A stretch of 15,620 nt of DNA, taken from the IMG/VR virus record IMGVR_UViG_2663762841_000005. One strand, given 5' to 3'. The position numbers and the translations under genes were made by a program. Under the pieces are notes generated by a model that ran no database searches, had not been told where the DNA came from, and saw only the letters and a program-made list of their open reading frames with translations. Positions within the stretch are counted from its first letter, which is position 1. The number at the start of each line of letters is the position of its first letter. The DNA comes from a virus. Its lineage: Duplodnaviria; Heunggongvirae; Uroviricota; Caudoviricetes. This document shows, one piece after another, positions 1,668-15,593 of this stretch.

Positions 1668-2765
1668 ATGGCGTACTATAACATAGAGAAACGACTAAAA
1701 TCCGATGGCACACCACGCTATCGCTGTAATGTGATTATCAAAGAAAAAGGTGTTATCACTTACAGGGAAAGCAAAACATTCCCTAAACATGCTCATGCCA
1801 AAACATGGGGCGCACAGAAAGTGATGGAATTAGATCTATATGGCATTCCATCATCAAATGCTGTTGACGGACTTACAGTCCGTGACTTACTACACAAATA
1901 TTTAAATGACCCAAATGCCGGAGGTAAAGCAGGCCGTACTAAAAGATATGTGCTGGAACTGCTTATGGATAGTGACATCTCCGCGATCAAACTATCTGAA
2001 CTGACAGAAAATGACGTAATTGAACATTGCAGGCTAAGAAACAACGCTGGTGCAGGCCCAGCAACAGTCAGCCACGATGTTAGTTATCTTGGCAGTGTTC
2101 TGGATGCGGCAAAACCTGTATACGGAATCAATTACACATCAAACCCGGCGAAAAGCGCTCGTCCATATCTACTTAAACTCGGTTTGATTGGTAAATCAAA
2201 CCGTCGTAATCGTAGACCAGCATCTGATGAACTGAACATGCTCATTGAAGGCCTTCAACAACGATCTACTCATAAATGCTCAAAAATTCCGTTCGTTGAT
2301 ATCCTCAAATTTTCTGTGTGGTCCTGTATGCGAATCGGAGAAGTATGCCGGTTACGATGGGAAGATCTCGACCAGGAACAAAAATCTATACTAGTAAGAG
2401 ACAGGAAAGATCCACGTAAAAAGGAAGGCAACCATATGAAAGTTGCCTTGCTTGGGGAAGCCTGGGATATCGTCCAGCGACAACCCAAAAAATCAGAATT
2501 CATTTTTCCATATAACAGCACTTCTGTTACCGCAGGATTTCAGAGGGTAAGAAGCAAATTAGGTATTAAAGATCTGAGATACCATGATTTGCGTAGAGAA
2601 GGGGCAAGTCGCTTATTTGAGGCTGGTTTTAGTATTGAGGAAGTCGCTCAGGTTACAGGGCATCGTTCATTAAACGTGCTATGGCAGGTATATACCGAAC
2701 TGTATCCGAAATCTTTACATAATCGTTTTGAAGAACTCCAAAGGAGCAGAAATAAGACCTCTTGA
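1668..2765 (+). CDS. Tyrosine-type site-specific integrase (dusA-associated integrase family candidate)
   Basis: 365-aa ORF with a C-terminal tyrosine recombinase catalytic region (RIGEV...R, HDLRREG, GHRSLNVLWQVYTELY with the candidate catalytic Tyr). It is the first island gene, directly adjacent to and transcribed away from the dusA 5' end. Confidence 0.9.
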   Translation: MAYYNIEKRLKSDGTPRYRCNVIIKEKGVITYRESKTFPKHAHAKTWGAQKVMELDLYGIPSSNAVDGLTVRDLLHKYLNDPNAGGKAGRTKRYVLELLMDSDISAIKLSELTENDVIEHCRLRNNAGAGPATVSHDVSYLGSVLDAAKPVYGINYTSNPAKSARPYLLKLGLIGKSNRRNRRPASDELNMLIEGLQQRSTHKCSKIPFVDILKFSVWSCMRIGEVCRLRWEDLDQEQKSILVRDRKDPRKKEGNHMKVALLGEAWDIVQRQPKKSEFIFPYNSTSVTAGFQRVRSKLGIKDLRYHDLRREGASRLFEAGFSIEEVAQVTGHRSLNVLWQVYTELYPKSLHNRFEELQRSRNKTS

Positions 2766-2813
2766 CACTGTTTATCCATACAGTTAAAAATAATACTGTA
2801 TACAAATACAGTG
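2762..2813 (+). promoter_or_regulatory. SOS-regulated promoter: -35 TTGACA (2762-2767), -10-like TAAAAA (2785-2790), LexA box TACTGTATACAAATACAGTG (2794-2813)
   Basis: CTGT-N8-ACAG at 2796-2811 is a perfect match to the LexA-box core and sits just downstream of the -10 and upstream of the DinI-like gene (SD AGGGGA at 2815-2820, ATG at 2826). Confidence 0.75.
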
Positions 2814-2825
2814 TAGGGGACTTTT

Positions 2826-3074
2826 ATGCGTATTGAAATCTGCATAGCCAAAGAAAAAATGACTAAAATGCCAACCGGTGCTGTGGATGCGTTAAAGGAA
2901 GAATTAACCCGACGCATCAGTAAACGTTATGACGATGTAGAAGTGATCGTAAAAGCCACCAGCAACGATGGCCTTTCTGTTACGCGCACCGCTGATAAAG
3001 ATTCAGCTAAAACTTTTGTTCAGGAGACTCTGAAAGATACCTGGGAGTCTGCTGACGAGTGGTTTGTTCATTAA
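2826..3074 (+). CDS. DinI-family DNA damage-inducible protein (prophage DinI homologue)
   Basis: 82-aa [14 protein letters not shown]...[11 protein letters not shown], with DinI-like length, N-terminus (MRIE..IAK) and C-terminal TWESAD-WF motif; preceded by a LexA box. Confidence 0.8.
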
Positions 3075-3106
3075 GTTCATCATCTCTGGACACCATTCAC
3101 TTGTAT

Positions 3107-3135
3107 TGACTTTAAGATCATTAAATTGTAATAAT
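3107..3135 (+). promoter_or_regulatory. Sigma-70-like promoter (-35 TTGACT 3107-3112, 17-bp spacer, -10 AATAAT 3130-3135) driving the ncRNA-TM-RT module
   Basis: 5/6 matches in both hexamers with optimal spacing; the predicted transcription start (about 3142-3145) coincides with the first arm (a1) of the 12-nt inverted repeat. Confidence 0.4.
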
Positions 3136-3140
3136 TCAAA

Positions 3141-3277
3141 GGGATGGGGCAGGTTTTTCCTCTTGCGCATGCAAGGGCGGCTCTGATAATGAACAGTAAT
3201 ATTTTACTGTTGAGCTTATGCTCACTGATCCTGCCGGGCAGGATGTTCAACGGTTCCAATATATCCTGCCCCTTCCG
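3141..3277 (+). ncRNA. Candidate structured non-coding RNA upstream of the TM-RT gene pair (retron msr-msd-like or DRT-type ncRNA); boundaries approximate
   Basis: No ORF; flanked by an inverted repeat GGATGGGGCAGG (3142-3153) / CCTGCCCCTTCC (3265-3276), 12 nt with one mismatch. Internal hairpins: CTTGC-GCAT-GCAAG (3162-3175), CAGTAA-TATT-TTACTG (3194-3209), TGAGC-TTAT-GCTCA (3211-3224), and the 17-bp palindrome ATCCTGCCGGGCAGGAT (3228-3244). Sits between a promoter and the TM/RT genes. Confidence 0.35.
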
Positions 3278-3296
3278 CTTTTAAAAAGGATCTTTT

Positions 3297-3848
3297 ATGC
3301 ATGACAATATTTGGTTTACATATAAAGCACGTATCCAAGCGCACCATCGACTAGAATGGCTTGAAAAACACTCTCAATTTATCCTCGTTTGGTATGCTAT
3401 ATTGAGTGCGGTACTTTCAATTGTAACGTTGCGATTTCCAAAGGTTCTAGGAGATAATACAGATGTCGTTGCGGCGATACTTTCAGTGGCTCTACTGGGT
3501 ATTTCTCTGATCGTATCTAACCTAGATTTTCGTGGTCGAGCAATAGCCATGAGAAGGAATTATATTGCACTACAGCGACTCTATTTTGACATTACCACCA
3601 GTCAACAGTTATCTCTTGAACAGAAAGAAAAATATTTTAATTTGCTCAATGAGGTTGAGAATCACCGTGACATAGATGATAAAATTTCAAGGGTAACTCA
3701 AGTTGGACTTAAGACGAGGATCCCCACACAAAAAGAAAAAATAATTGTTATTTTATGGATATTACTTCGAATATTTATTACTGCCGCACTTTATATACTC
3801 CCATTAATATATCTTTGGATTGACTATGACTGCAAGCAGAATTTTTAA
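3297..3848 (+). CDS. Small multi-TM membrane protein (2 N-terminal TM helices plus a C-terminal hydrophobic segment); candidate effector of the RT module, possibly SLATT-like
   Basis: 183-aa ORF, AT-rich, SD AAGGA 7 nt before the ATG. Hydrophobic stretches FILVWYAILSAVLSIVTL, VVAAILSVALLGISLIVSNL and IIVILWILLRIFITAALYILPLIYLWI. Its 3' end overlaps the RT start by 29 nt, suggesting translational coupling. The SLATT assignment is a guess from architecture. Confidence 0.65.
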   Translation: MHDNIWFTYKARIQAHHRLEWLEKHSQFILVWYAILSAVLSIVTLRFPKVLGDNTDVVAAILSVALLGISLIVSNLDFRGRAIAMRRNYIALQRLYFDITTSQQLSLEQKEKYFNLLNEVENHRDIDDKISRVTQVGLKTRIPTQKEKIIVILWILLRIFITAALYILPLIYLWIDYDCKQNF

Positions 3849-5196
3849 AAAGTCATTCTCGAAAAAAAATCTTCTAAAAGTATACTCTGAAAAAATCAAA
3901 GAATCAGGAGCGATTGGCATAGATCGGATTCGCCCATCAAAACTTGATTTGACAATAAAAAATGAGATCACTTTCATTTTTGAAAAGGTTAATTCTGGCA
4001 ATTACAAATTTACAGCATATAAAGAAAAATTAATATCTAAAGGCGCTAACTCTACACCCAGACAGATTTCCATACCAACTGCTAGGGACAGAATTACTCT
4101 TAGAGCTCTCTGTGAATGCCTTACGGAAATATATCCTAAGTCCAGATTAAAACTACCACATACAGTAATTGACTCATTGAAAGAAGCATTAAACAACAGT
4201 CTATATGCTGAATATGCAAAAATAGATCTTAAAAGTTTCTATCCTTCAATTGAACATAAATTGATAATTAATGCAATAAAAAATAAAATTAGAAAAAAAG
4301 AAATTAGACAGTTAATAACATCATCATTAATCGTGCCTACTGTAAGTGGAACCACAGGAAGCAAAGGTATCCCTAATAATACCAGAGGAGTACCTCAGGG
4401 ATTAGCGATATCAAACATTTTAGCTGAAATATCACTATCTAATTTCGATGATGAAATCAATAAAATGCATGACATATGGTACATGCGATACGTTGATGAC
4501 ATTCTTATTTTAACACCAAAATATCAAGCAACAAAAATAGCTTCTCATATCATTGATAAGCTTCAATCATTAAATTTAAACCCACATCCATTAAATGAAG
4601 AGAACTCAAAATCCAAAGTAGGCAGTTTGGATGAAAGTTTTAACTTTTTGGGATACCACATAGAAAATCGAGAATTATTGATAAAACATGAGAGCATTCT
4701 TAGATTTGAGTCATCCTTAGCAAAAATTTTTACTGCATATAGGCACGCTCTACTACAAGCTAAAAGTAAGCGTGATAAAGAACGAGCTGTTGCATATTGT
4801 CAGTGGAAACTAAATCTCAGAATTACGGGATGTGTGTTTGAAGGTAAACGATTGGGATGGGTATCGTACTTCTCACAAATAACCTCAACAGCTCAACTTC
4901 GCTCTGTTAATCATACTATCAATAATCTTATCCGCCGATTCGGCCTTTCATCAGAAATAAAACCAAAATCTTTGATTAAAACTTTCTATGAACTCCGCAG
5001 AGGTAGAGCGGAGACTTTTAAATACATACCTAACTTTGACAATCTACATATATCTCAGAAACGAGAACTTGTTTCTATGTGGATAGGTAAAGAGAAGGAA
5101 AAAAAACTTAGCAATAGTGAAATAGAGAGGAAGTTTAAATTTAAAATTGCGAAATCAGTAAAAGAGCTTGAAGAGGATATTTCAGGAATATCATAG
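3820..5196 (+). CDS. Reverse transcriptase (prokaryotic retron/Abi/UG-type, defence-associated candidate)
   Basis: 458-aa ORF with canonical RT motifs: motif A IDLKSFYPSI (Asp about residue 136), motif B' GVPQGLAISNILAEISL (about 190-206), motif C YVDD (residues 224-227, nt 4489-4500), motif E-like FLGY, plus a C-terminal extension of roughly 170 aa. A possible retron-like NN..A and ITG (region-7 VTG-like) are present, but the spacing differs from Ec86, so the family call is tentative. Confidence 0.9.
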   Translation: MTMTASRIFKKSFSKKNLLKVYSEKIKESGAIGIDRIRPSKLDLTIKNEITFIFEKVNSGNYKFTAYKEKLISKGANSTPRQISIPTARDRITLRALCECLTEIYPKSRLKLPHTVIDSLKEALNNSLYAEYAKIDLKSFYPSIEHKLIINAIKNKIRKKEIRQLITSSLIVPTVSGTTGSKGIPNNTRGVPQGLAISNILAEISLSNFDDEINKMHDIWYMRYVDDILILTPKYQATKIASHIIDKLQSLNLNPHPLNEENSKSKVGSLDESFNFLGYHIENRELLIKHESILRFESSLAKIFTAYRHALLQAKSKRDKERAVAYCQWKLNLRITGCVFEGKRLGWVSYFSQITSTAQLRSVNHTINNLIRRFGLSSEIKPKSLIKTFYELRRGRAETFKYIPNFDNLHISQKRELVSMWIGKEKEKKLSNSEIERKFKFKIAKSVKELEEDISGIS

Positions 5197-5250
5197 ATAT
5201 GTAATCCATTAAGTCATTAAAATATATCGCAATAAACACACTATTTAAAC

Positions 5251-5667
5251 TCACAAACCAGCCGCAGTATCCTGCCATGGCAAGTTGCTGCGGCTTTTTA
5301 TGTTCAACGGATCAACAGCCAGATCAGAAGACACGCTACCCACGTTGTAAACGAACGAGTAAAGAGCGCCGCGCGTTGTTTCCGGTATATCGACTTTGAT
5401 GTACGGGTTAATTTGTCTGGCGACCGTGGCAAGGTCTTTATTCAGGAGGGCTTTGCATTCTGCTTCGGTATACGTTTTACCTAGCATGATGTCTTTTCCG
5501 GTGTGTCCGTAACATACAGTCCATACGCCAACGATATCTTTGTATGGTATGTAGCTGACACCTTCCAGGCCATCGTCACCACTTGGGCCAGTGATTAACA
5601 CTGATGCTATAGCAATTGCTCCGCCACCAATAGCAGCAGCAACTGCTTTTCGTAATGATGGAGGCAT
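5251..5667 (-). CDS. SAR endolysin (phage 21 R-type, T4-lysozyme-fold glycoside hydrolase), apparently 3'-truncated at the junction with the RT cassette
   Basis: N-terminal signal-anchor [27 protein letters not shown] followed by the lysozyme catalytic region ([26 protein letters not shown]...[15 protein letters not shown]). After about residue 110 (nt about 5340) the sequence loses lysozyme character and reads through the plus-strand terminator before stopping; full-length homologues are about 165 aa by my recollection. Its start overlaps the holin stop. Confidence 0.75.
5260..5300 (+). terminator. Rho-independent terminator of the RT operon (AGCCGCAG ... CTGCGGCT stem, then TTTTTAT)
   Basis: 8-bp perfect inverted repeat at 5260-5267 / 5288-5295 enclosing a palindromic TGCCATGGCA core, followed by a T-run at 5295-5299; about 65 nt downstream of the RT stop. 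Confidence 0.6.
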
Positions 5668-5949: not shown

Positions 5950-7002
5950 TTATTTCCCCACCAGCTCGTTTATCTCTTTCACTGTCTGGTTAAACCGCTC
6001 TGACTCAAGCTCAACACCTAAGGCCCGACGCCCCAGCGCCATTGCTGCTTTTATTGTGGAACCGGATCCCATAAAAAAATCAGCAACCAGATCACCAGGT
6101 CGACTACTGGCATTGATTATTTGCCTGAGCATATCCGCCGGTTTCTCACACGGATGTTTACCCGGGTAGAACTGAACGGGTTTATGCATCCAGACATCGG
6201 TATAAGGCACGGAGACTGATACGGAGAAATAGCGCCGGAGAGATTTAAACTCATCCAGCAATTCAGAATATTTGCGATTCAGTGAATCATAAGATGCCAC
6301 CAGCTGGTGGTGTGGTTGTTCCAGTTGTTGTTCCTGAAACTTCTCTGCCGCTATACGGGAAAACAGTGCCTGTAACTTCCGATAGTCAGCCTCATTCGGC
6401 AACTGCCACTGACTGGCACCAAACCAGTGGGAAACCATATTTTTCTTACCTGTGGCTTCGGCAATTTGTTTTGCCGTTATACCCAGTTCGGCACGAGCAT
6501 CCCTGAAATACGATATCAGCGGTGCCATTATGTGCTGTTTGAGTTCCCTTTCTTTTGCCGCATAGCCGTCACTTTTGCCGCGATATGGCCCCTGGTAATG
6601 TTCAGCAAACAGAACGCGCTCTGTGGCAGGAAAATATGCGCGCAGACTTTCTTTATTACACCCATTCCAACGTCCGGACGGCTTCGCCCAGATGATATGG
6701 TTAAGCACGTTGAAACGTTCACGCATCATGATCTCAATATCAGATGCCAGGCGATGCCCACAGAACAGGTAAAGGCTTCCGGCAGGTTTTAACACCCGCC
6801 AGAACTGGGCCAGACAGTGGTCCAGCCACTTAAGGTAATCTTCGTCCCCTTTCCACTGATTGTCCCAGCCGTTGGGTTTCACCTTGAAGTACGGCGGATC
6901 GGTAACAATCAGGTCAATGGAATCATCAGGCAGGGACTGAATAAAATGCAGGCAATCAGCGTTGATTAAATCAACACTGTTTATTTTTACAGTATTTTTC
7001 AT
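5950..7002 (-). CDS. DNA methyltransferase (N6-adenine/N4-cytosine family, DPPY motif), orphan
   Basis: 350-aa ORF with motif IV TDPPYF near the N-terminus and a C-terminal AdoMet-binding region (DFFMGSGST). No adjacent restriction endonuclease gene is visible. Confidence 0.85.
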
Positions 7003-7592: not shown

Positions 7593-8759
7593 ATGGAATT
7601 GACCAAAAAAATGAGCAAAGCAAGCATACGCCACGTAATCGTTCATGAGCTCTTAAAAGAATCTAATAAAGACTTCGATCACTCCAAACCATACAATCTT
7701 CGTGATACAGAACTAGATAAAACAAATGATATAGTAAAAAAATTAGTAGACGGTGTTATTGATTTGTATGGTTCAAAAGGGAACTCAGCGCATTATGGTG
7801 TTTTTATTAAAAATAAAACAAAGCAAGGCCCTATACCAGAACTATTTCATAAATACTCTTTAGTTCAACAATCTGTTTCAAGTGATTTCATTGAATTATC
7901 GAAGGAAGTTATGAAACAAATGTATAAATCTGCTCAAGAGCAGATTTGGGCTTCTGGAGGATATGTTGTTTTTACTGATTATATTTTATCTGGTTTCCGT
8001 TATCTATTGGTTACAATGATCAAAAAAACTAATGGCGTAACTATTAGTGAAAATTTAGAGCCAGAGGAAATGATTCACTTAGAACTTGGTAATATTAACC
8101 AAGCAGCAAAAATAAATTTCAGATATTATGAAGAATACCAAAAAGCAGATGACTTAAAAAAAACAGACTTAAGTTATCTAAGCTTTATAAGCAAAACTAC
8201 GGGACAGTCAGCGGCAGCATATTTTATAGCAGCATTAGGATGTGACAAGGGGATTGCTTCAGCAGGTGCAACCCGTAAGTTACCAGATGAAATAAGGCGT
8301 TTCTTTAAGAAAGAACCTCTTTTAAAAAATCAAGCAGAGTCATTTAGAAATGATGTTATCAAATACTTAGAAAAGCAATTTGACAACGAGCACTCTGCAA
8401 GGCTTTCTGATATCGAATCGCTTGCTTCAGGCCATATGTCCTATTTAAAAGAGGAAGAAAAAACAGAACTTGTTGATAAATTAATGAAACACCTCAATAG
8501 TGAGGAAGTCAGAATCCCATCAGAGTTCGTAATCAATAAAAACTCCTTAGATAAAATCAGCAATGTGATATATAAAACCCCATCATTGAGCTTTCACTTC
8601 GACAAGGATTTACTCGGTGTCACAACTGATGCTAAAATATATTATGATGACGAAAACCAAAGCCTAACATTTAATAATTTGCCTGTTGAAGCATTAACTA
8701 AGATAAGAAGAGCGTTGAAAGAAACTGATAACCCAAGTAATGAAGAAGATAAAGAATGA
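7593..8759 (+). CDS. Nucleoid-associated protein NdpA/YejK-family homologue (divergent, AT-rich)
   Basis: 388-aa ORF with YejK-like blocks: IRHVIVHELLK near the N-terminus, GGYVVFTDYILSGFRYLLVTMIKKTNGVTISENLEPEEMIHLELGNINQAAKIN, and YLSFISKTTGQSAAAYFIAALGCDKG. The probable true start is the ATG at 7611 (MSKASIRHV...), which aligns with the YejK N-terminus; 7593 is the longest ORF. Its stop overlaps the start of the next gene (ATGA). Confidence 0.75.
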   Translation: MELTKKMSKASIRHVIVHELLKESNKDFDHSKPYNLRDTELDKTNDIVKKLVDGVIDLYGSKGNSAHYGVFIKNKTKQGPIPELFHKYSLVQQSVSSDFIELSKEVMKQMYKSAQEQIWASGGYVVFTDYILSGFRYLLVTMIKKTNGVTISENLEPEEMIHLELGNINQAAKINFRYYEEYQKADDLKKTDLSYLSFISKTTGQSAAAYFIAALGCDKGIASAGATRKLPDEIRRFFKKEPLLKNQAESFRNDVIKYLEKQFDNEHSARLSDIESLASGHMSYLKEEEKTELVDKLMKHLNSEEVRIPSEFVINKNSLDKISNVIYKTPSLSFHFDKDLLGVTTDAKIYYDDENQSLTFNNLPVEALTKIRRALKETDNPSNEEDKE

Positions 8760-9982
8760 ATGATTTTAGTATAATAGTTAATCTGTATAGATTATCAAGC
8801 TATCCTCATTTTGACGGGGCTAAGTTTTCTGCGCGTATAGCTTATAATGCAGACGTAAAATCATTGTTCAAAAGAATTTTGAACCCTACTTTTCAAGCTG
8901 GTACAGCTGACGAAATAGAGGTGGATGGTCATTTAATTTATGATTATGAAGACTTTCCTGAAAAGGGAAATTTTCTTACATACTCGTTTAAAATTTCACA
9001 AGGAAGTGCGAATCGTTTTTATAAAAATAAAAACGAGTTTGTAAAAATAAACACGCTCAAGAAAGGCATAATGCCAGAGTATTTCTATATTATAGAGGAT
9101 GATTTCTATTCATTAGAAACACCAAAACCTTCTTATATCCAAAAAATTGAGGACATTTGTGAGCTAATCAATGCTCTTTCCATGCTTGCTCATTTCCATG
9201 ATATAAAAAAAGATAGCAAAGGTACATTTTATCGTTTAGTCTTTATTTTAAACTCAGAGTCTAAATCTTCTTCTGCTGTAATTGAAACAAATATTACAGA
9301 AGAAATTTTTAATGATAAAACAGTAAATACTCAGTTAGTTAAAACATTAGTAAGTAGTGAAGCTACTACTGATGCCCATCACATTGAAAAGATTAACACT
9401 TTCAGAAACACAGTTATTGAGTATGTTAATAAAAATGGAAATTCCTTTGTCGAGTTAATTAACAAGTGGGATTTCATATGCGAACTTTATACGAACAACT
9501 TAGCTGCTTATATGTCGGCATTTTCTTTTCATAAAGCAAGGAAAGAAGTTGTTGATGCTGAACTCGATTACTCAGAAAAACTGTCAAAAATAATTTCAGA
9601 AATTTCTAACAAAGCTCTTGCAATACCTATTTCACTAGCTGGTTCAATTGCTATTTTCAAATTAACAACAAAAGCTGATTGGATTATTGCTTTAATTGGA
9701 TTGATTATCACAGCAATAATAACATCTGCAATGATTGTGTCACAAAAAAAACAACTTGCTCGTATTTCACACTCTAAAGAAATACTTTTTGGACAATTAA
9801 GATATAGAATAAAGGATGACACCAGCGATCTTAAAGAGAGCTTAGAAGAGGCTATTAAAAAATTAAATGACAATGAGGATTTTTGTCATAAGGTGCTTGA
9901 CAGTTTATTATCACTAGCATGGATGCCTACATTCATAGGCATCATCGGTATTTTATTTAAATTAATGCCAAATATTACTTGA
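8756..9982 (+). CDS. Hypothetical protein with soluble N-terminal domain and three C-terminal TM helices; candidate membrane effector partner of the NdpA-like protein
   Basis: 408-aa ORF, AT-rich, translationally coupled to the upstream gene (4-bp overlap). Predicted TM segments at about residues 287-302, 309-327 and 383-403 (nt about 9614-9964). No recognisable catalytic motifs. Its 3' end overlaps the 3' end of the convergent Q gene by 8 bp. Confidence 0.7.
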   Translation: MNDFSIIVNLYRLSSYPHFDGAKFSARIAYNADVKSLFKRILNPTFQAGTADEIEVDGHLIYDYEDFPEKGNFLTYSFKISQGSANRFYKNKNEFVKINTLKKGIMPEYFYIIEDDFYSLETPKPSYIQKIEDICELINALSMLAHFHDIKKDSKGTFYRLVFILNSESKSSSAVIETNITEEIFNDKTVNTQLVKTLVSSEATTDAHHIEKINTFRNTVIEYVNKNGNSFVELINKWDFICELYTNNLAAYMSAFSFHKARKEVVDAELDYSEKLSKIISEISNKALAIPISLAGSIAIFKLTTKADWIIALIGLIITAIITSAMIVSQKKQLARISHSKEILFGQLRYRIKDDTSDLKESLEEAIKKLNDNEDFCHKVLDSLLSLAWMPTFIGIIGILFKLMPNIT

Positions 9983-12540: not shown

Positions 12541-12863
12541 ACTTTCAGGCCCCTCTCATGTAACCAGTGGGCTGCACGCAACCTGGCGTTCTCCTCACCG
12601 GCAAGCAGTGCGCGGATGATACCGACCGCCTCGCTGTCGTCGTCCTTCACTGCGGTATGAAGCGTGATCCCCCGGGCCACGCCACGCTTTATCGTGATGA
12701 CGCCTTTTTTCTCCAGTGCGCGAAGATGCTCCACGGCTGCATTCACTGAACGGTATCCCAGCATGGTTGCCACCTCCTGATTGGTTGGCAGAAAGCCACG
12801 CTCTTGCTGGTAAGAAATCAGAATATCCAGCACCTGCTGCTGGCATTGAGTTAACGTCGTCAT
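12537..12863 (-). CDS. LexA-type N-terminal DNA-binding domain protein (no S24 peptidase domain)
   Basis: 108-aa ORF; the N-terminus LTQCQQQVLDILISYQQERGFLPTNQEVATMLGYRSVNAAVEHLRALEKKGVI resembles the LexA winged-HTH domain; overlaps neighbours by 4 bp on each side (operon context). Confidence 0.6.
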   Translation of the reverse strand: MTTLTQCQQQVLDILISYQQERGFLPTNQEVATMLGYRSVNAAVEHLRALEKKGVITIKRGVARGITLHTAVKDDDSEAVGIIRALLAGEENARLRAAHWLHERGLKV

Positions 12864-13546
12864 GCCGCCATCTCCCTAACCAGTTTTTCCGCCTGCTGGC
12901 GAACCTGCGCCAGAAACGCCTCACCACATGCCTCAAGTTCATCGCGCCCGATGTAGCTGATTGCCGGTCCCTTCCAGGTCTTATCGAAAACAGCAATAGC
13001 ACCAGCGAAGAAAGCGCCTGTCGGCACCTGCTTCTCATCCTTCGGGATAAACCAGGCAGGCAGTTCAAAACCAATACGCCCGCGAATAAAAGCAATATGG
13101 TCCGCATCTTCCGGCCACCACACTTCGCTGGTGGCAGCTTTGATCAGGAAAACATAGCGCCCACCCTTATCACGCATGGCACTGGCATGTTTCATGATGT
13201 AACGCATGCCGGTGATGTATTGCCCCTCATGCTGACTGGCGCGGCTGTATGGGGGATTACCAAAGGCAGCCCCTTTAAGCTCCGCAAGACGTTCTGACCA
13301 GTCATGCGCCAGCGCGTTGTCTTCCGCCGTGTAATACGCAGCACATTTGGCGTTATCACCGTCAGTGAACAGATCCAGAACAAACGGGCCAAACAGGGTG
13401 TTAATTCCCCAGAAAATGTTGTCCGGCGTGCGCCACTGATCGCCCACTTCCTTCAGTTCATGGGCTGGTTTGTTCCGCAGTTCCACCAGCGCCTGGCAAT
13501 ATTTATTACTCATTAAGCCCCCACGTAATTCCCTGACAGATACCAC
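12860..13546 (-). CDS. Phage Dam-like N6-adenine DNA methyltransferase
   Basis: 228-aa ORF with motif GNPPYS (DPPY-type) and similarity in layout to phage N-6-adenine-methyltransferase family proteins. Confidence 0.8.
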   Translation of the reverse strand: MVSVRELRGGLMSNKYCQALVELRNKPAHELKEVGDQWRTPDNIFWGINTLFGPFVLDLFTDGDNAKCAAYYTAEDNALAHDWSERLAELKGAAFGNPPYSRASQHEGQYITGMRYIMKHASAMRDKGGRYVFLIKAATSEVWWPEDADHIAFIRGRIGFELPAWFIPKDEKQVPTGAFFAGAIAVFDKTWKGPAISYIGRDELEACGEAFLAQVRQQAEKLVREMAA

Positions 13547-15055: not shown

Positions 15056-15593
15056 GACGATGCCCTCCGCTGATATTCAGGAGACGGTGAATATGAAAAT
15101 TAGCCTTATCCGCCAGACGAATACGTTCAGCCTGCAAGTTAAGAAGGGTTTCTACCAGAACTTGATGCGCCTGCGGATCCGAAAGAGTTACCTTGCGCAG
15201 AGCACGTAGTGCAGTTGTTACATAACTGAGTTTATGTAAGTCTTCATCATTCAGACGAGTGAGGGCTGGGACAGTAGCCATGATGGCAGCCTCCGATAAC
15301 AGTGAATTACCTTCACCACCGGAAACGCCAATTTCGCTGGTGGTGAACTGAACGGGGTTGGCGTAACCGGCGTTATCGGAAACCGGCGCACCTTTCGGTG
15401 CCCCCGTCCAGCCCACCATAATTTGGGTGTGCACAGACGCAGACGATAAAAAAGACGCTGGCGCGTCATATATCGCCGATAACATTTCCAGGACGCCAAT
15501 CCCGGCACCCGCTTTATAAGGTGCCTGAACAGTGTAACGTCCCGGAATGGCAGAATCAATGTGCTGGTGGTCCTTCACACTCAACAAAATCAC
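15048..15593 (-). CDS. Hypothetical phage protein (181 aa); start may lie nearer the window edge
   Basis: Longest ORF in the region; overlaps the next gene by 8 bp. No family recognised; an alternative-frame ORF (15251..15559) is judged spurious. Confidence 0.4.
   Translation of the reverse strand: MILLSVKDHQHIDSAIPGRYTVQAPYKAGAGIGVLEMLSAIYDAPASFLSSASVHTQIMVGWTGAPKGAPVSDNAGYANPVQFTTSEIGVSGGEGNSLLSEAAIMATVPALTRLNDEDLHKLSYVTTALRALRKVTLSDPQAHQVLVETLLNLQAERIRLADKANFHIHRLLNISGGHRHA

Follow-up and report, generated by a model that had tools for sequence, protein, structure and literature searches.

Organization of a UG17 reverse transcriptase module, very probably a copy of the DRT10 anti-phage system, in a decayed lambdoid prophage

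In this study, we report the organization of a reverse transcriptase (RT) module contained in 15,620 nucleotides of a Caudoviricetes virus record (IMGVR_UViG_2663762841_000005), a stretch of DNA that is referred to here in its full length as the window. A decayed lambdoid prophage, inserted at dusA, carries the module as cargo at its integrase end. This prophage has lost all its head and tail genes, and a truncated lysozyme gene adjoins the module. It was also observed that the module is retained beside int-dinI while the remaining lambdoid prophage decays. The genes are AT-rich, as the original prediction for this DNA had stated, with a G+C content of 0.31-0.38 in the module and about 0.5 in the flanks. 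The annotation of the locus is as follows (SL, stem-loop; ncRNA, non-coding RNA).

3106..3135, + strand: putative sigma-70 promoter, with −35 box TTGACT (3106-3111), 18-nt spacer and extended −10 TGtAATAAT (3127-3135)
3142..3278, + strand: DRT10 ncRNA, 137 nt, by homology with Eco3DRT10
3142-3153/3265-3276, + strand: SL1, 12 positions including one U-U, 75% G-C
3160-3166/3171-3177, + strand: SL2
3178-3191, + strand: loop A, with U43 at 3184 and G44 at 3185
3192-3199/3204-3211, + strand: SL3, 25% GC
3212-3215/3220-3223, + strand: SL4
3227, 3228-3234/3238-3244 and 3245, + strand: G86, SL5 and G104, respectively
3245-3264, + strand: loop B
3248..3260, + strand: predicted template A-B-A' in loop B, with A = CAAC (3248-3251), B = GGUUC (3252-3256) and A' = CAAU (3257-3260)
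3246-3247 and 3261-3264, + strand: template linkers, 5' UU and 3' AUAU
3297..3848, + strand: SLATT_5 membrane effector, 183 aa, by Pfam, NCBIfam and PADLOC; ribosome-binding site AAGGA at 3286-3290
3826..5196, + strand: UG17/DRT10 RT, 456 aa from ATG; a TTG start at 3820 adds 2 aa
5260..5300, + strand: putative intrinsic terminator, a G+C-rich interrupted hairpin (5260-5295) followed by UUUUU

The open reading frame of the RT extends from TTG 3820 to 5196 (458 aa) and carries the intact motifs that had been noticed in the original prediction, IDLKSFYPSI, GVPQG and YVDD, at residues 133-142, 188-192 and 222-225 in ATG numbering. The true start is almost certainly ATG 3826, which gives 456 aa. 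This start is used by RefSeq, where the protein is already deposited as WP_001678535.1, and an equivalent M/V-[STN]-A opens the 19 RT homologues examined (19/19). An identical two-residue misannotation in OKX54664 was fixed by Tang et al. (PMC12632851). The overlap of 29 nt with the upstream gene that was first proposed holds when it is counted from TTG, but the ATG start reduces it to 23 nt.

Profile searches, which had been suggested together with the original prediction, matched the RT from end to end to the PADLOC model RT_UG17 (E 1.2e-158, 526.5 bits; query 1-456, model 1-429/429). The named top models were all of DRT/UG families with UG17 far in front, the second-best being Drt3a (126 bits), while Drt9 reached 69 bits. 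On these matches, the RT is assigned to the UG17 clade of Class 2 UG/Abi RTs. Residues N197, R371, K385 and Y388, which together with YVDD are essential in Eco3DRT10 (10.64898/2026.06.29.735271), are present with the same numbering. In DRT10, the priming hydroxyl belongs to a C-terminal Ser or Tyr that follows a conserved helix. Here, the C-terminal helix (...KELEEDISGIS) ends in S456, the counterpart of the Eco3 priming serine, and neither this last Ser nor YVDD varied among 20/20 loci. A sequence search of the PDB with the RT did not find a DRT10 entry, its best matches being group II intron RTs (6ar1, E 3e-14). Given that the PDB copy searched has no such entry, our structural statements on DRT10 rest on the preprint.

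The gene that precedes the RT encodes the 183-aa multi-TM protein originally described, with hydrophobic segments at about residues 27-47, 55-77 and 148-175 by hydropathy. The SLATT search proposed for it was successful, with matches to Pfam SLATT_5 (1.3e-28), NCBIfam SLATT_5 (136 bits, cut-off 60) and PADLOC RTasSLATT (1.5e-56). RefSeq names the protein a 'SLATT domain-containing protein' (WP_000543834.1). The SLATT and RT genes overlap in 17/17 loci by 2-23 nt, and the 23-nt overlap found here suggests that both are translationally coupled. PHROGs has families for both proteins.

The upstream gap, described as roughly 220 bp, free of ORFs and structured, is indeed 222 bp long (3075-3296). 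No conserved ORF was found in it, and its 161-nt core has an MFE of −59 kcal/mol (z = −4.4 relative to shuffles). The ncRNA fold was analyzed in 17 loci from Escherichia, Xenorhabdus, Buttiauxella, Photorhabdus, Pseudomonas and Stutzerimonas. In the 38 pairs of the five helices, 97.0% of cells were paired, against 45-56% with slid partners. Two-sided changes occurred in 16 pairs, compared with 4-6 in the slid controls, and none of 500 shuffles matched these values. The five helices are thus supported by covariation across genera. An RNA of this kind, in which a basal stem encloses small stem-loops and loops A and B are pseudo-symmetric, is a feature of DRT10. The lower four pairs of SL1 were weaker in the MAFFT alignment (column 6/139 was unpaired in 8/17 cells), which missed a one-base bulge in one Pseudomonas/Stutzerimonas group. 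Additional multiloop pairs of the MFE structure (GG/CC, CUG/CGG) were not conserved and were removed from the tested structure. No Rfam family for the ncRNA was found, either at gathering thresholds over the whole window or at E up to 10 over 3050-3350, where the sub-threshold matches SNORD43 and MEG8 were considered noise. It was also noted that genome annotation is blank at the ncRNA and template ('none' beneath the match in carrier genomes).

Both regulatory signals originally pointed out were recovered. The promoter scored 10/12 in a consensus scan, plus the extended TG, and the predicted transcription start (G3142) lies 7 nt 3' of it. This position fits the RIP-seq 5' end of the Eco3 ncRNA after mapping of the published numbering. 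In addition, a −10-like hexamer, mostly with TG before it, was located 6-9 nt 5' of SL1 in 17/17 loci, including Pseudomonas (TGTAGAAT). This promoter serves the ncRNA and probably the operon too. The SLATT ATG comes only 18 nt after the ncRNA 3' end, so that read-through beyond the ncRNA is the most likely source of the SLATT and RT transcript. The terminator is placed 64 nt past the RT stop codon (5190-5300 folds with −24.3 kcal/mol, z = −3.4), and the consensus scan overlooked it because the hairpin loop is interrupted.

The module is part of a 2.2-kb block found at 90% identity or more in 188 E. coli genomes and at 100.0% identity in at least 21 complete genomes among the matches listed. 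The terminator is within this block, kept at 90-100% identity in the 188 genomes. Neither a DNA match nor a tblastn match of the RT (E up to 1e-20) was found among INPHARED phages, and the module is therefore seen solely in prophages or chromosomes of the collections searched.

The order of ncRNA, membrane effector and RT proposed for a defence module is confirmed. Eco3DRT10 (E. coli 703491, RT OKX54664) has been characterized by genetics, biochemistry and cryo-EM in 2025-2026 preprints (Tang et al. 2025, PMC12632851; Ramirez et al. 2026, 10.64898/2026.06.29.735271). It shares with the window the gene order, the RT length of 456 aa, the ncRNA length, the five stem-loops, the linkers, the G86-G104 pair, the initiation site C116 and the priming S456. 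The window RT is identical to OKX54664 in 392/397 positions (residues 1-397 compared). The five changes (S21T, T49A, K105N, N124S and K300R) spare the residues reported as essential, and they are also the first five of six by which the window differs from the allele of E. coli CE10. Over the last 59 residues of OKX54664, the CE10 allele suggests E425G only. In the CE10 ncRNA, the template is exactly that published for Eco3 and the remaining RNA is nearly identical to that of the window. One SL2 base differs (C-G in the window, U-G in CE10), as does base 3141 before the RNA start. The window ncRNA is 98% identical, with zero indels, to E. coli alleles that include one with the published Eco3 template. 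Landmarks U43, G44, G86, G104, U105-U106, C107, G111, C116 and A120-U123 all fall on the correct bases. In attention to the above, it is very probable, on sequence grounds, that the locus is a DRT10 anti-phage system (UG17, subtype A, Eco3-like) carried as prophage cargo and working as Eco3DRT10 does.

Given that every landmark is identical in the 99%-identical Eco3DRT10, the mechanism of the latter was carried to the window allele. The promoter at 3106-3135 would drive the 137-nt ncRNA (3142-3278), whose basal SL1 and SL2-SL5 would bind two RT monomers, one at loop A and one at loop B. The monomer at loop B would prime DNA from the hydroxyl of its own C-terminal S456, opposite C116 (window 3257), and would copy the template as far as C107 (3248). 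There it would be stopped by the SL5 anchor, formed by the 2-nt UU linker and by R371 in contact with the G86-G104 pair. The growing DNA would then melt at its 3' end and re-anneal on A' (3257-3260), and repetition of the cycle would yield kilobase-long ssDNA covalently joined to the RT. SLATT may sense the amount or state of this repeat DNA, and would presumably then permeabilize the membrane and so abort the infection. The state of the DNA would depend on exonuclease I (SbcB) of the host, with SSB-like proteins of the phage as the disturbing trigger (10.64898/2026.04.29.721553 for SbcB and for the trigger). On infection, the cDNA falls in Eco3 but rises in the system of Escherichia sp. E3659 (10.64898/2026.04.29.721553), so that this control may run in either direction. 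Expression of the module in the degraded host prophage is not guaranteed.

With respect to the template, it starts 2 nt past G104 at the SL5 base (3 nt past the last Watson-Crick pair) and reads CAAC-GGUUC-CAAU. Its positional homologue in Eco3 is CAAU-GAUUC-CAAU, that is, A (107-110), B (111-115) and A' (116-119). From its letters, the window template is predicted to yield (5'-GAACCGTTG-3')n, compared with (GAATCATTG)n for Eco3. Two changes, U110C and A112G, leave an A-A' Watson-Crick homology of 3 nt in the window versus 4 in Eco3. Realignment is thus predicted to involve three Watson-Crick pairs and one dG-rU wobble at the fourth position, and a homology of 3 nt plus wobble is within the range shown to be sufficient (PMC12632851). 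Loop B showed the A-B-A' pattern in 17/17 loci, with variable sequence, and loop A in 0/17. Among the E. coli carriers, the window template form is found in 154/188 and the Eco3 form in 34/188, while outside the template the 137-nt RNA is nearly invariant. As the window form is also present in Xenorhabdus, with near-variants in Photorhabdus and Pseudomonas, the Eco3 template allele looks derived. In the part of the supplementary tables of Tang et al. that was examined, the ncRNA and template strings of the window allele were not found.

It must be considered that A112G adds a competing 4-nt direct repeat (GUUC...GUUC) with a period of 8 nt. The RT could then use the register A = GUUC (3245-3248), B = AACG (3249-3252) and A' = GUUC (3253-3256), and produce (CGTTGAAC)n, alone or mixed with 9-nt repeats. 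This is the longest direct repeat of loop B, compared with only 3 identical bases in the homologous 9-nt register, and a cryptic internal re-annealing site causing imprecise repeat addition has been documented in Eco1DRT10. Such a register, however, would oblige the RT to copy past the UU linker to G104, which is held in the G86-G104 pair by R371. In Eco3, the 5' boundary is geometric at C107 whatever the sequence, read-through products do not reset, and SL5, both linkers and R371 are identical here. Moreover, Eco3 has a 3-nt UUC...UUC in the same register and still makes precise 9-mers, and a cDNA ending in ...GTTG-3' has no complement at the GUUC site. We consider the 8-nt register improbable and the 9-nt repeat remains the preferred reading.

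Other identities of the locus were weighed against DRT10. The original prediction had favored a retron-like system, in which the upstream region would be an msr-msd, with a conserved G whose 2'-OH primes branched msDNA, and the TM protein would act as the retron effector. The order of ncRNA, effector and RT and a membrane effector are found in some retrons, and the weak match to the St85 RT model (E 5.6e-16) is what is expected between any two prokaryotic RTs. Nevertheless, NCBIfam retron_St85_RT reached only 58.7 bits (cut-off 235) against 526 bits for the UG17 model, and Rfam retron families, msr included, gave no matches at E up to 10. Instead of a long msd hairpin, the RNA shows five stems in a closed fold and a 9-nt template, and the 456-aa RT has a C-terminal priming helix and serine. 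In the 99%-identical enzyme of Eco3DRT10, a protein serine, not a branching G, primes the synthesis and the product is RNase-insensitive (PMC12632851). The ITG taken as a VTG-like motif is at residues 333-335 (RITGC...LGWVSYF), in the thumb/maturase-like region, and is not the retron VTG. A retron is ruled out by the RT family placement, and its probability is practically nil. This is equally so for a group II intron or group-II-like RT-maturase, a mobile retroelement and not a defence gene. In its favor, the best NCBIfam match is group_II_RT_mat, group II intron RTs are, by sequence, the nearest solved structures and there is a weak GIIM match in the thumb region. The 144 bits of the NCBIfam match (TIGR04416) are, however, far under the equivalog cut-off (300 bits), Rfam recovered group II intron RNA domains on neither strand of the window, and a conserved SLATT gene and a small ncRNA precede the RT in all relatives, with the locus at a fixed prophage position and no intron-like insertion pattern.

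The module could also be a silent relic, intact in appearance but non-functional in a dead prophage, as the missing head and tail genes and the abutting truncated lysozyme gene might suggest. Against this, both ORFs, the promoter and the terminator are intact, no residue shown to be essential is missing, the differences of the ncRNA from functional alleles are confined to loops, wobble positions and template, and the 2.2-kb block is conserved in the many genomes indicated above. It is therefore very improbable. The fallback in the original prediction, an Abi/UG-type RT with a membrane partner, was exactly right, while the suspicion that this combination may not be described was mistaken, the UG17 and SLATT association being on record since 2022 (PMC9226505) and DRT10 since 2025-2026. 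The system is the already known DRT10 in an ordinary natural copy, and is neither a retron nor undescribed.

DRT10 defence, the need for all three parts, the tandem-repeat cDNA, the serine priming, the 2:1 cryo-EM architecture and the geometric template boundary have been reported (PMC12632851; 10.64898/2026.06.29.735271). RT-dependent synthesis of protein-linked tandem-repeat ssDNA was described for Eco3DRT10, for another two systems of E. coli and for six additional homologues (PMC12632851), and phage protection requiring RT, SLATT and ncRNA for Eco1-3 DRT10 (PMC12632851) and the E3659 system (10.64898/2026.04.29.721553). The latter, a UG17-A system (Sanchez-Nieto et al. 2026), is also tripartite (ncRNA-SLATT-RT) with overlapping genes, an independently detectable ncRNA, an essential basal stem SL1, tandem-repeat cDNA and SbcB-dependent toxicity. 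Unlike the window, it belongs to another lineage, in which the ncRNA has 143 nt and is depicted with six stem-loops, the repeat is 7 nt long and the RT has about 445 aa. Among other Class 2 UG systems, DRT9 (UG28) and DRT3 (UG3+UG8) also perform ncRNA-templated repetitive DNA synthesis, protein-primed in DRT9, with two RT-anchored stem-loops framing the template loop and SLATT proteins sometimes associated. DRT9 differs in being a hexamer that makes poly-dA from a poly-U template, and DRT3 in having two RTs. A DRT9 identity for the window was rejected, with 69 bits for the Drt9 model and no template U tract in loop B. Telomerase (TERT plus telomerase RNA) works alike, as it copies a short template within its RNA again and again, halts at a structured 5' template boundary element and resets the template by an alignment segment (A'). 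DRT10, in contrast, is protein-primed and not primed by a chromosome end, has a 456-aa enzyme with two RTs per RNA, and is antiviral. The window locus is operationally outside the telomerase family, and a common ancestry of telomerase and DRT10 is a proposal from the phylogeny of the preprint authors.

The locus is thus a true positive as a defence RT module and not a discovery. Its analysis annotates the ncRNA, the template and the boundary elements to the nucleotide, and adds a clean example of DRT10 as retained cargo in a decaying lambdoid prophage. In addition, the commonest natural E. coli allele is predicted to make the 9-mer GAACCGTTG, unlike the studied allele. That the template dimorphism carries functional weight, either because the repeat sequence matters or because the GUUC register yields mixed 8- and 9-nt repeats, seems to us unlikely. 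If true, the dimorphism would be a natural experiment on the role of the repeat DNA, and the repeat sequence could bear on SLATT gating, on the sensitivity to SbcB and phage SSB-like proteins and on phage counter-defence.

The reverse transcriptase (RT) module of the window was AT-rich, with a G+C content of 0.31-0.38 and approximately 0.5 in the flanks. The region contained the following elements:

2826-3074: DinI-like gene (Pfam DinI, 1e-19)
3075-3296: gap between the stop of the DinI-like gene and the SLATT start
3106-3135: near-consensus promoter (TTGACT, 18 nt, TGtAATAAT)
3297-3848, + strand: 183-aa membrane protein (SLATT), its ORF overlapping the RT ORF
3820-5196, + strand: RT ORF as listed, from TTG 3820, 458 aa
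5260-5295: hairpin followed by U5, 64 nt past the RT stop

The core of the gap had a folding energy of -59 kcal/mol (z = -4.4 with respect to dinucleotide shuffles), and position 1 of the non-coding RNA (ncRNA) was the predicted transcription start, 7 nt past the -10 element. Three strongly hydrophobic segments were found in the 183-aa protein (approximately aa 27-47, 55-77, and 148-175), and the motifs IDLKSFYPSI, GVPQG, and YVDD were present in the RT. The original prediction of an RT with an overlapping membrane protein, a structured gap, a promoter and a terminator was thus borne out. The 458-aa ORF with its 29-nt overlap was also found as proposed, but on sequence comparison the RT start is assigned instead to ATG 3826, giving 456 aa and a 23-nt overlap with the SLATT gene, because this is the start annotated in RefSeq, the homologues all share the corresponding start, and the same two-residue misannotation was corrected for OKX54664 by the authors who characterized the family (PMC12632851).

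The RT matched the PADLOC RT_UG17 model along its full length (E 1.2e-158, 526.5 bits; runner-up Drt3a, 126 bits) and the 183-aa protein was a member of SLATT_5 (Pfam 1.3e-28; NCBIfam 136 bits, with a cut-off of 60 bits; PADLOC "RTasSLATT" 1.5e-56), in agreement with the alternative first offered of a UG-type RT with a membrane partner, possibly of the SLATT type. The retron reading was not sustained, since the St85 retron RT model scored 58.7 bits, under its cut-off of 235. A group II intron placement, regarded in the original prediction as incompatible with its reading, was likewise discarded (RT/maturase model, 144 bits, under the cut-off of 300). In Rfam, no family corresponded to the upstream RNA, and the searches detected neither retron nor intron RNA. 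Nor was the combination undescribed, as had been considered possible: the association of UG17 with SLATT was described in 2022 (PMC9226505), it received the name DRT10 in 2025 (PMC12632851), and further work has appeared in two 2026 preprints (10.64898/2026.04.29.721553; 10.64898/2026.06.29.735271).

The locus is an ordinary copy, in effect one allele, of this already characterized system, and the original recognition of a defence RT module with a membrane partner was correct. The RT sequence of Eco3DRT10 (OKX54664, E. coli 703491), taken from the PMC12632851 supplement, was identical to that of the window at 392 of the first 397 residues, the part available for comparison, the five differences being S21T, T49A, K105N, N124S, and K300R. 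The allele of E. coli CE10 showed six RT differences from the window, the first five of which are those separating Eco3DRT10, and its ncRNA carried the exact published Eco3 template, CAAUGAUUC followed by CAAU. There were no indels between these alleles, so that the published numbering of the 137-nt ncRNA can be carried over as it stands (position n = window 3141 + n). All landmarks reported in the Eco3DRT10 papers fell on the correct base of the window ncRNA:

3184 and 3185: U43 and G44, loop A
3227 and 3245: G86 and G104, non-canonical pair at the base of SL5
3246-3247: 5' linker U105-U106
3248: boundary nucleotide C107
3252: G111
3257: initiation site C116
3261-3264: 3' linker A120-U123

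As in the published landmarks, SL1 was 75% G-C and SL3 25% GC. The window RT has YVDD (222-225), N197, R371, K385, Y388, and the C-terminal priming serine S456.

A search in which each species was represented by one genome yielded 14 full-length relatives with 58-84% amino-acid identity, in Xenorhabdus, Buttiauxella, Photorhabdus, Pseudomonas, and Stutzerimonas. In all of them the SLATT and RT genes overlapped by 2-23 nt and a -10-like element was located 6-9 nt upstream of SL1. The terminal serine and YVDD were invariant in 20 of 20 loci. When 17 distinct ncRNAs were aligned to test the five-helix structure (38 pairs) for covariation, 97.0% of cells were paired vs. 45-56% with partners slid by 1-3 columns, and both sides had changed in 16 of the 38 pairs vs. 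4-6 in the slid controls. The window sequence itself supplied the structure, which gives the first measure some advantage but does not affect the number of compensatory pairs. None of 500 shuffles matched the observed value of any measure. In each of the 17 RNAs, loop B contained an A-B-A' direct repeat, whose period was 8-10 nt and whose sequence varied; loop A had no such repeat in any of them.

The steps leading to repeat DNA were shown for the near-identical Eco3DRT10 (PMC12632851; 10.64898/2026.06.29.735271), and we infer them for the window by identity. Two RT monomers would be scaffolded by the ncRNA. The loop-B monomer would initiate on the S456 hydroxyl opposite C116, then copy B and A up to C107, where the SL5 anchor, in which R371 contacts the G86-G104 pair, would halt it at a constant distance of 2 nt. 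The DNA 3' end would re-pair with A' and the cycle repeat, so that single-stranded tandem repeats of kilobase length, covalently attached to the RT, are produced. The loop-A monomer would make short abortive products only. With the window template CAAC-GGUUC and CAAU as A', the predicted repeat is 5'-GAACCGTTG-3', of 9 nt, the fourth realignment position being a predicted dG-rU wobble. In Eco3DRT10, an A-A' homology of three bases suffices, and the fourth base and the B segment tolerate change (PMC12632851). Loop B of the window allele also contains an 8-nt register, GUUC-AACG-GUUC, which could compete and give a CGTTGAAC or mixed periodicity; however, it is unlikely to be used, since the boundary is set by geometry and all of its elements are the same in the window. 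We also infer an effector step in which SLATT, a predicted pore-former, would respond to how much repeat DNA is present or to its state. In the UG17-A system of Escherichia sp. E3659, the system is restrained by host exonuclease I (SbcB), and its trigger is an SSB-like protein of the phage (10.64898/2026.04.29.721553); in Eco3DRT10, cDNA falls on infection and its authors propose that the DNA keeps SLATT in check. We lean with low confidence toward Eco3-type behavior for the window allele.

Among 5,426 complete genomes of E. coli, 188 carried the 2.2-kb DRT10 block, with 90-100% identity and chromosomal in every case. Its template (window 3248-3260, compared with 4174-4186 of L003, another locus of our set) was dimorphic, 154 carriers having CAACGGUUCCAAU, the window form, and 34 having CAAUGAUUCCAAU, the Eco3/CE10 form, which together account for all 188. 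The majority template was common to divergent RT alleles (94.7-100% DNA identity). Since the window form was also found in Xenorhabdus, and the Photorhabdus and Pseudomonas forms are close to it, the studied Eco3 template is probably the derived allele. In NZ_CP025851.1 (E. coli 510016), an IS1A insertion splits the SLATT gene and the rest of the module is 98% identical; this is a natural effector knockout, which agrees with the reported toxicity of UG17 systems.

In the six carrier loci inspected (6/6), the module occupied the same place, one end of a lambdoid prophage, where it followed a DinI-like gene and was convergent with tail-fibre genes; the attachment sites differed (next to dusA, prfC, and yecD). 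At L004, the locus of E. coli CT265, positions 2003-4000 contained two tandem DinI-like genes upstream of DRT10, with a capsid-gene fragment and a 567-nt hypothetical gene between them, an arrangement suggestive of a stack of two prophage ends at prfC. The window prophage, at dusA, was a remnant without head or tail genes, matching that of strain AR434 at 100% identity outside a single indel region, a junction near 5340-5608 with 267 nt in the window vs. 3.6 kb of tail-fibre, minor-tail, and portal fragments in AR434. A truncated lysozyme gene (5251-5667, - strand; Pfam profile positions 3-80 of 125) ran into the DRT10 terminator. Prophage decay differs between the sister strains, with DRT10 intact throughout. 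Other features of the window were:

5950-7002, - strand: N6_N4 MTase (Pfam 2e-42; PADLOC MTase_II 3e-152)
in 7593-9982, + strand: 388-aa NA37/nucleoid-associated-protein homologue (Pfam 5e-50; phrog_3767)
in 7593-9982, + strand: 408-aa protein (phrog_5023, function unknown; no Pfam or PADLOC matches)
12860-13546, - strand: phage N-6-adenine methyltransferase (AR434 annotation)
15336-15423, - strand: C4 antisense RNA (Rfam, 82.8 bits)
15448-15524, - strand: isrK (Rfam, 63.7 bits)

The two overlapping ORFs of 7593-9982 made up another AT-rich island (GC 0.29-0.35). Flanked by the Q antiterminator and the methylase/lysis genes but on the opposite strand, they occupied the classic lambdoid "moron" slot and may be an uncharacterized cargo or defence pair. 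No restriction gene was adjacent to the N6_N4 MTase, and both methyltransferases are probably orphan anti-restriction methylases. C4 and isrK, side by side, correspond to the P1/P7-type antirepressor-control RNAs of the prophage immunity region.

With respect to the DRT10 family, only three things are new here: the annotation at the level of the base, the predicted alternative repeat, and the fact that the template used in the laboratory is the minority natural allele.
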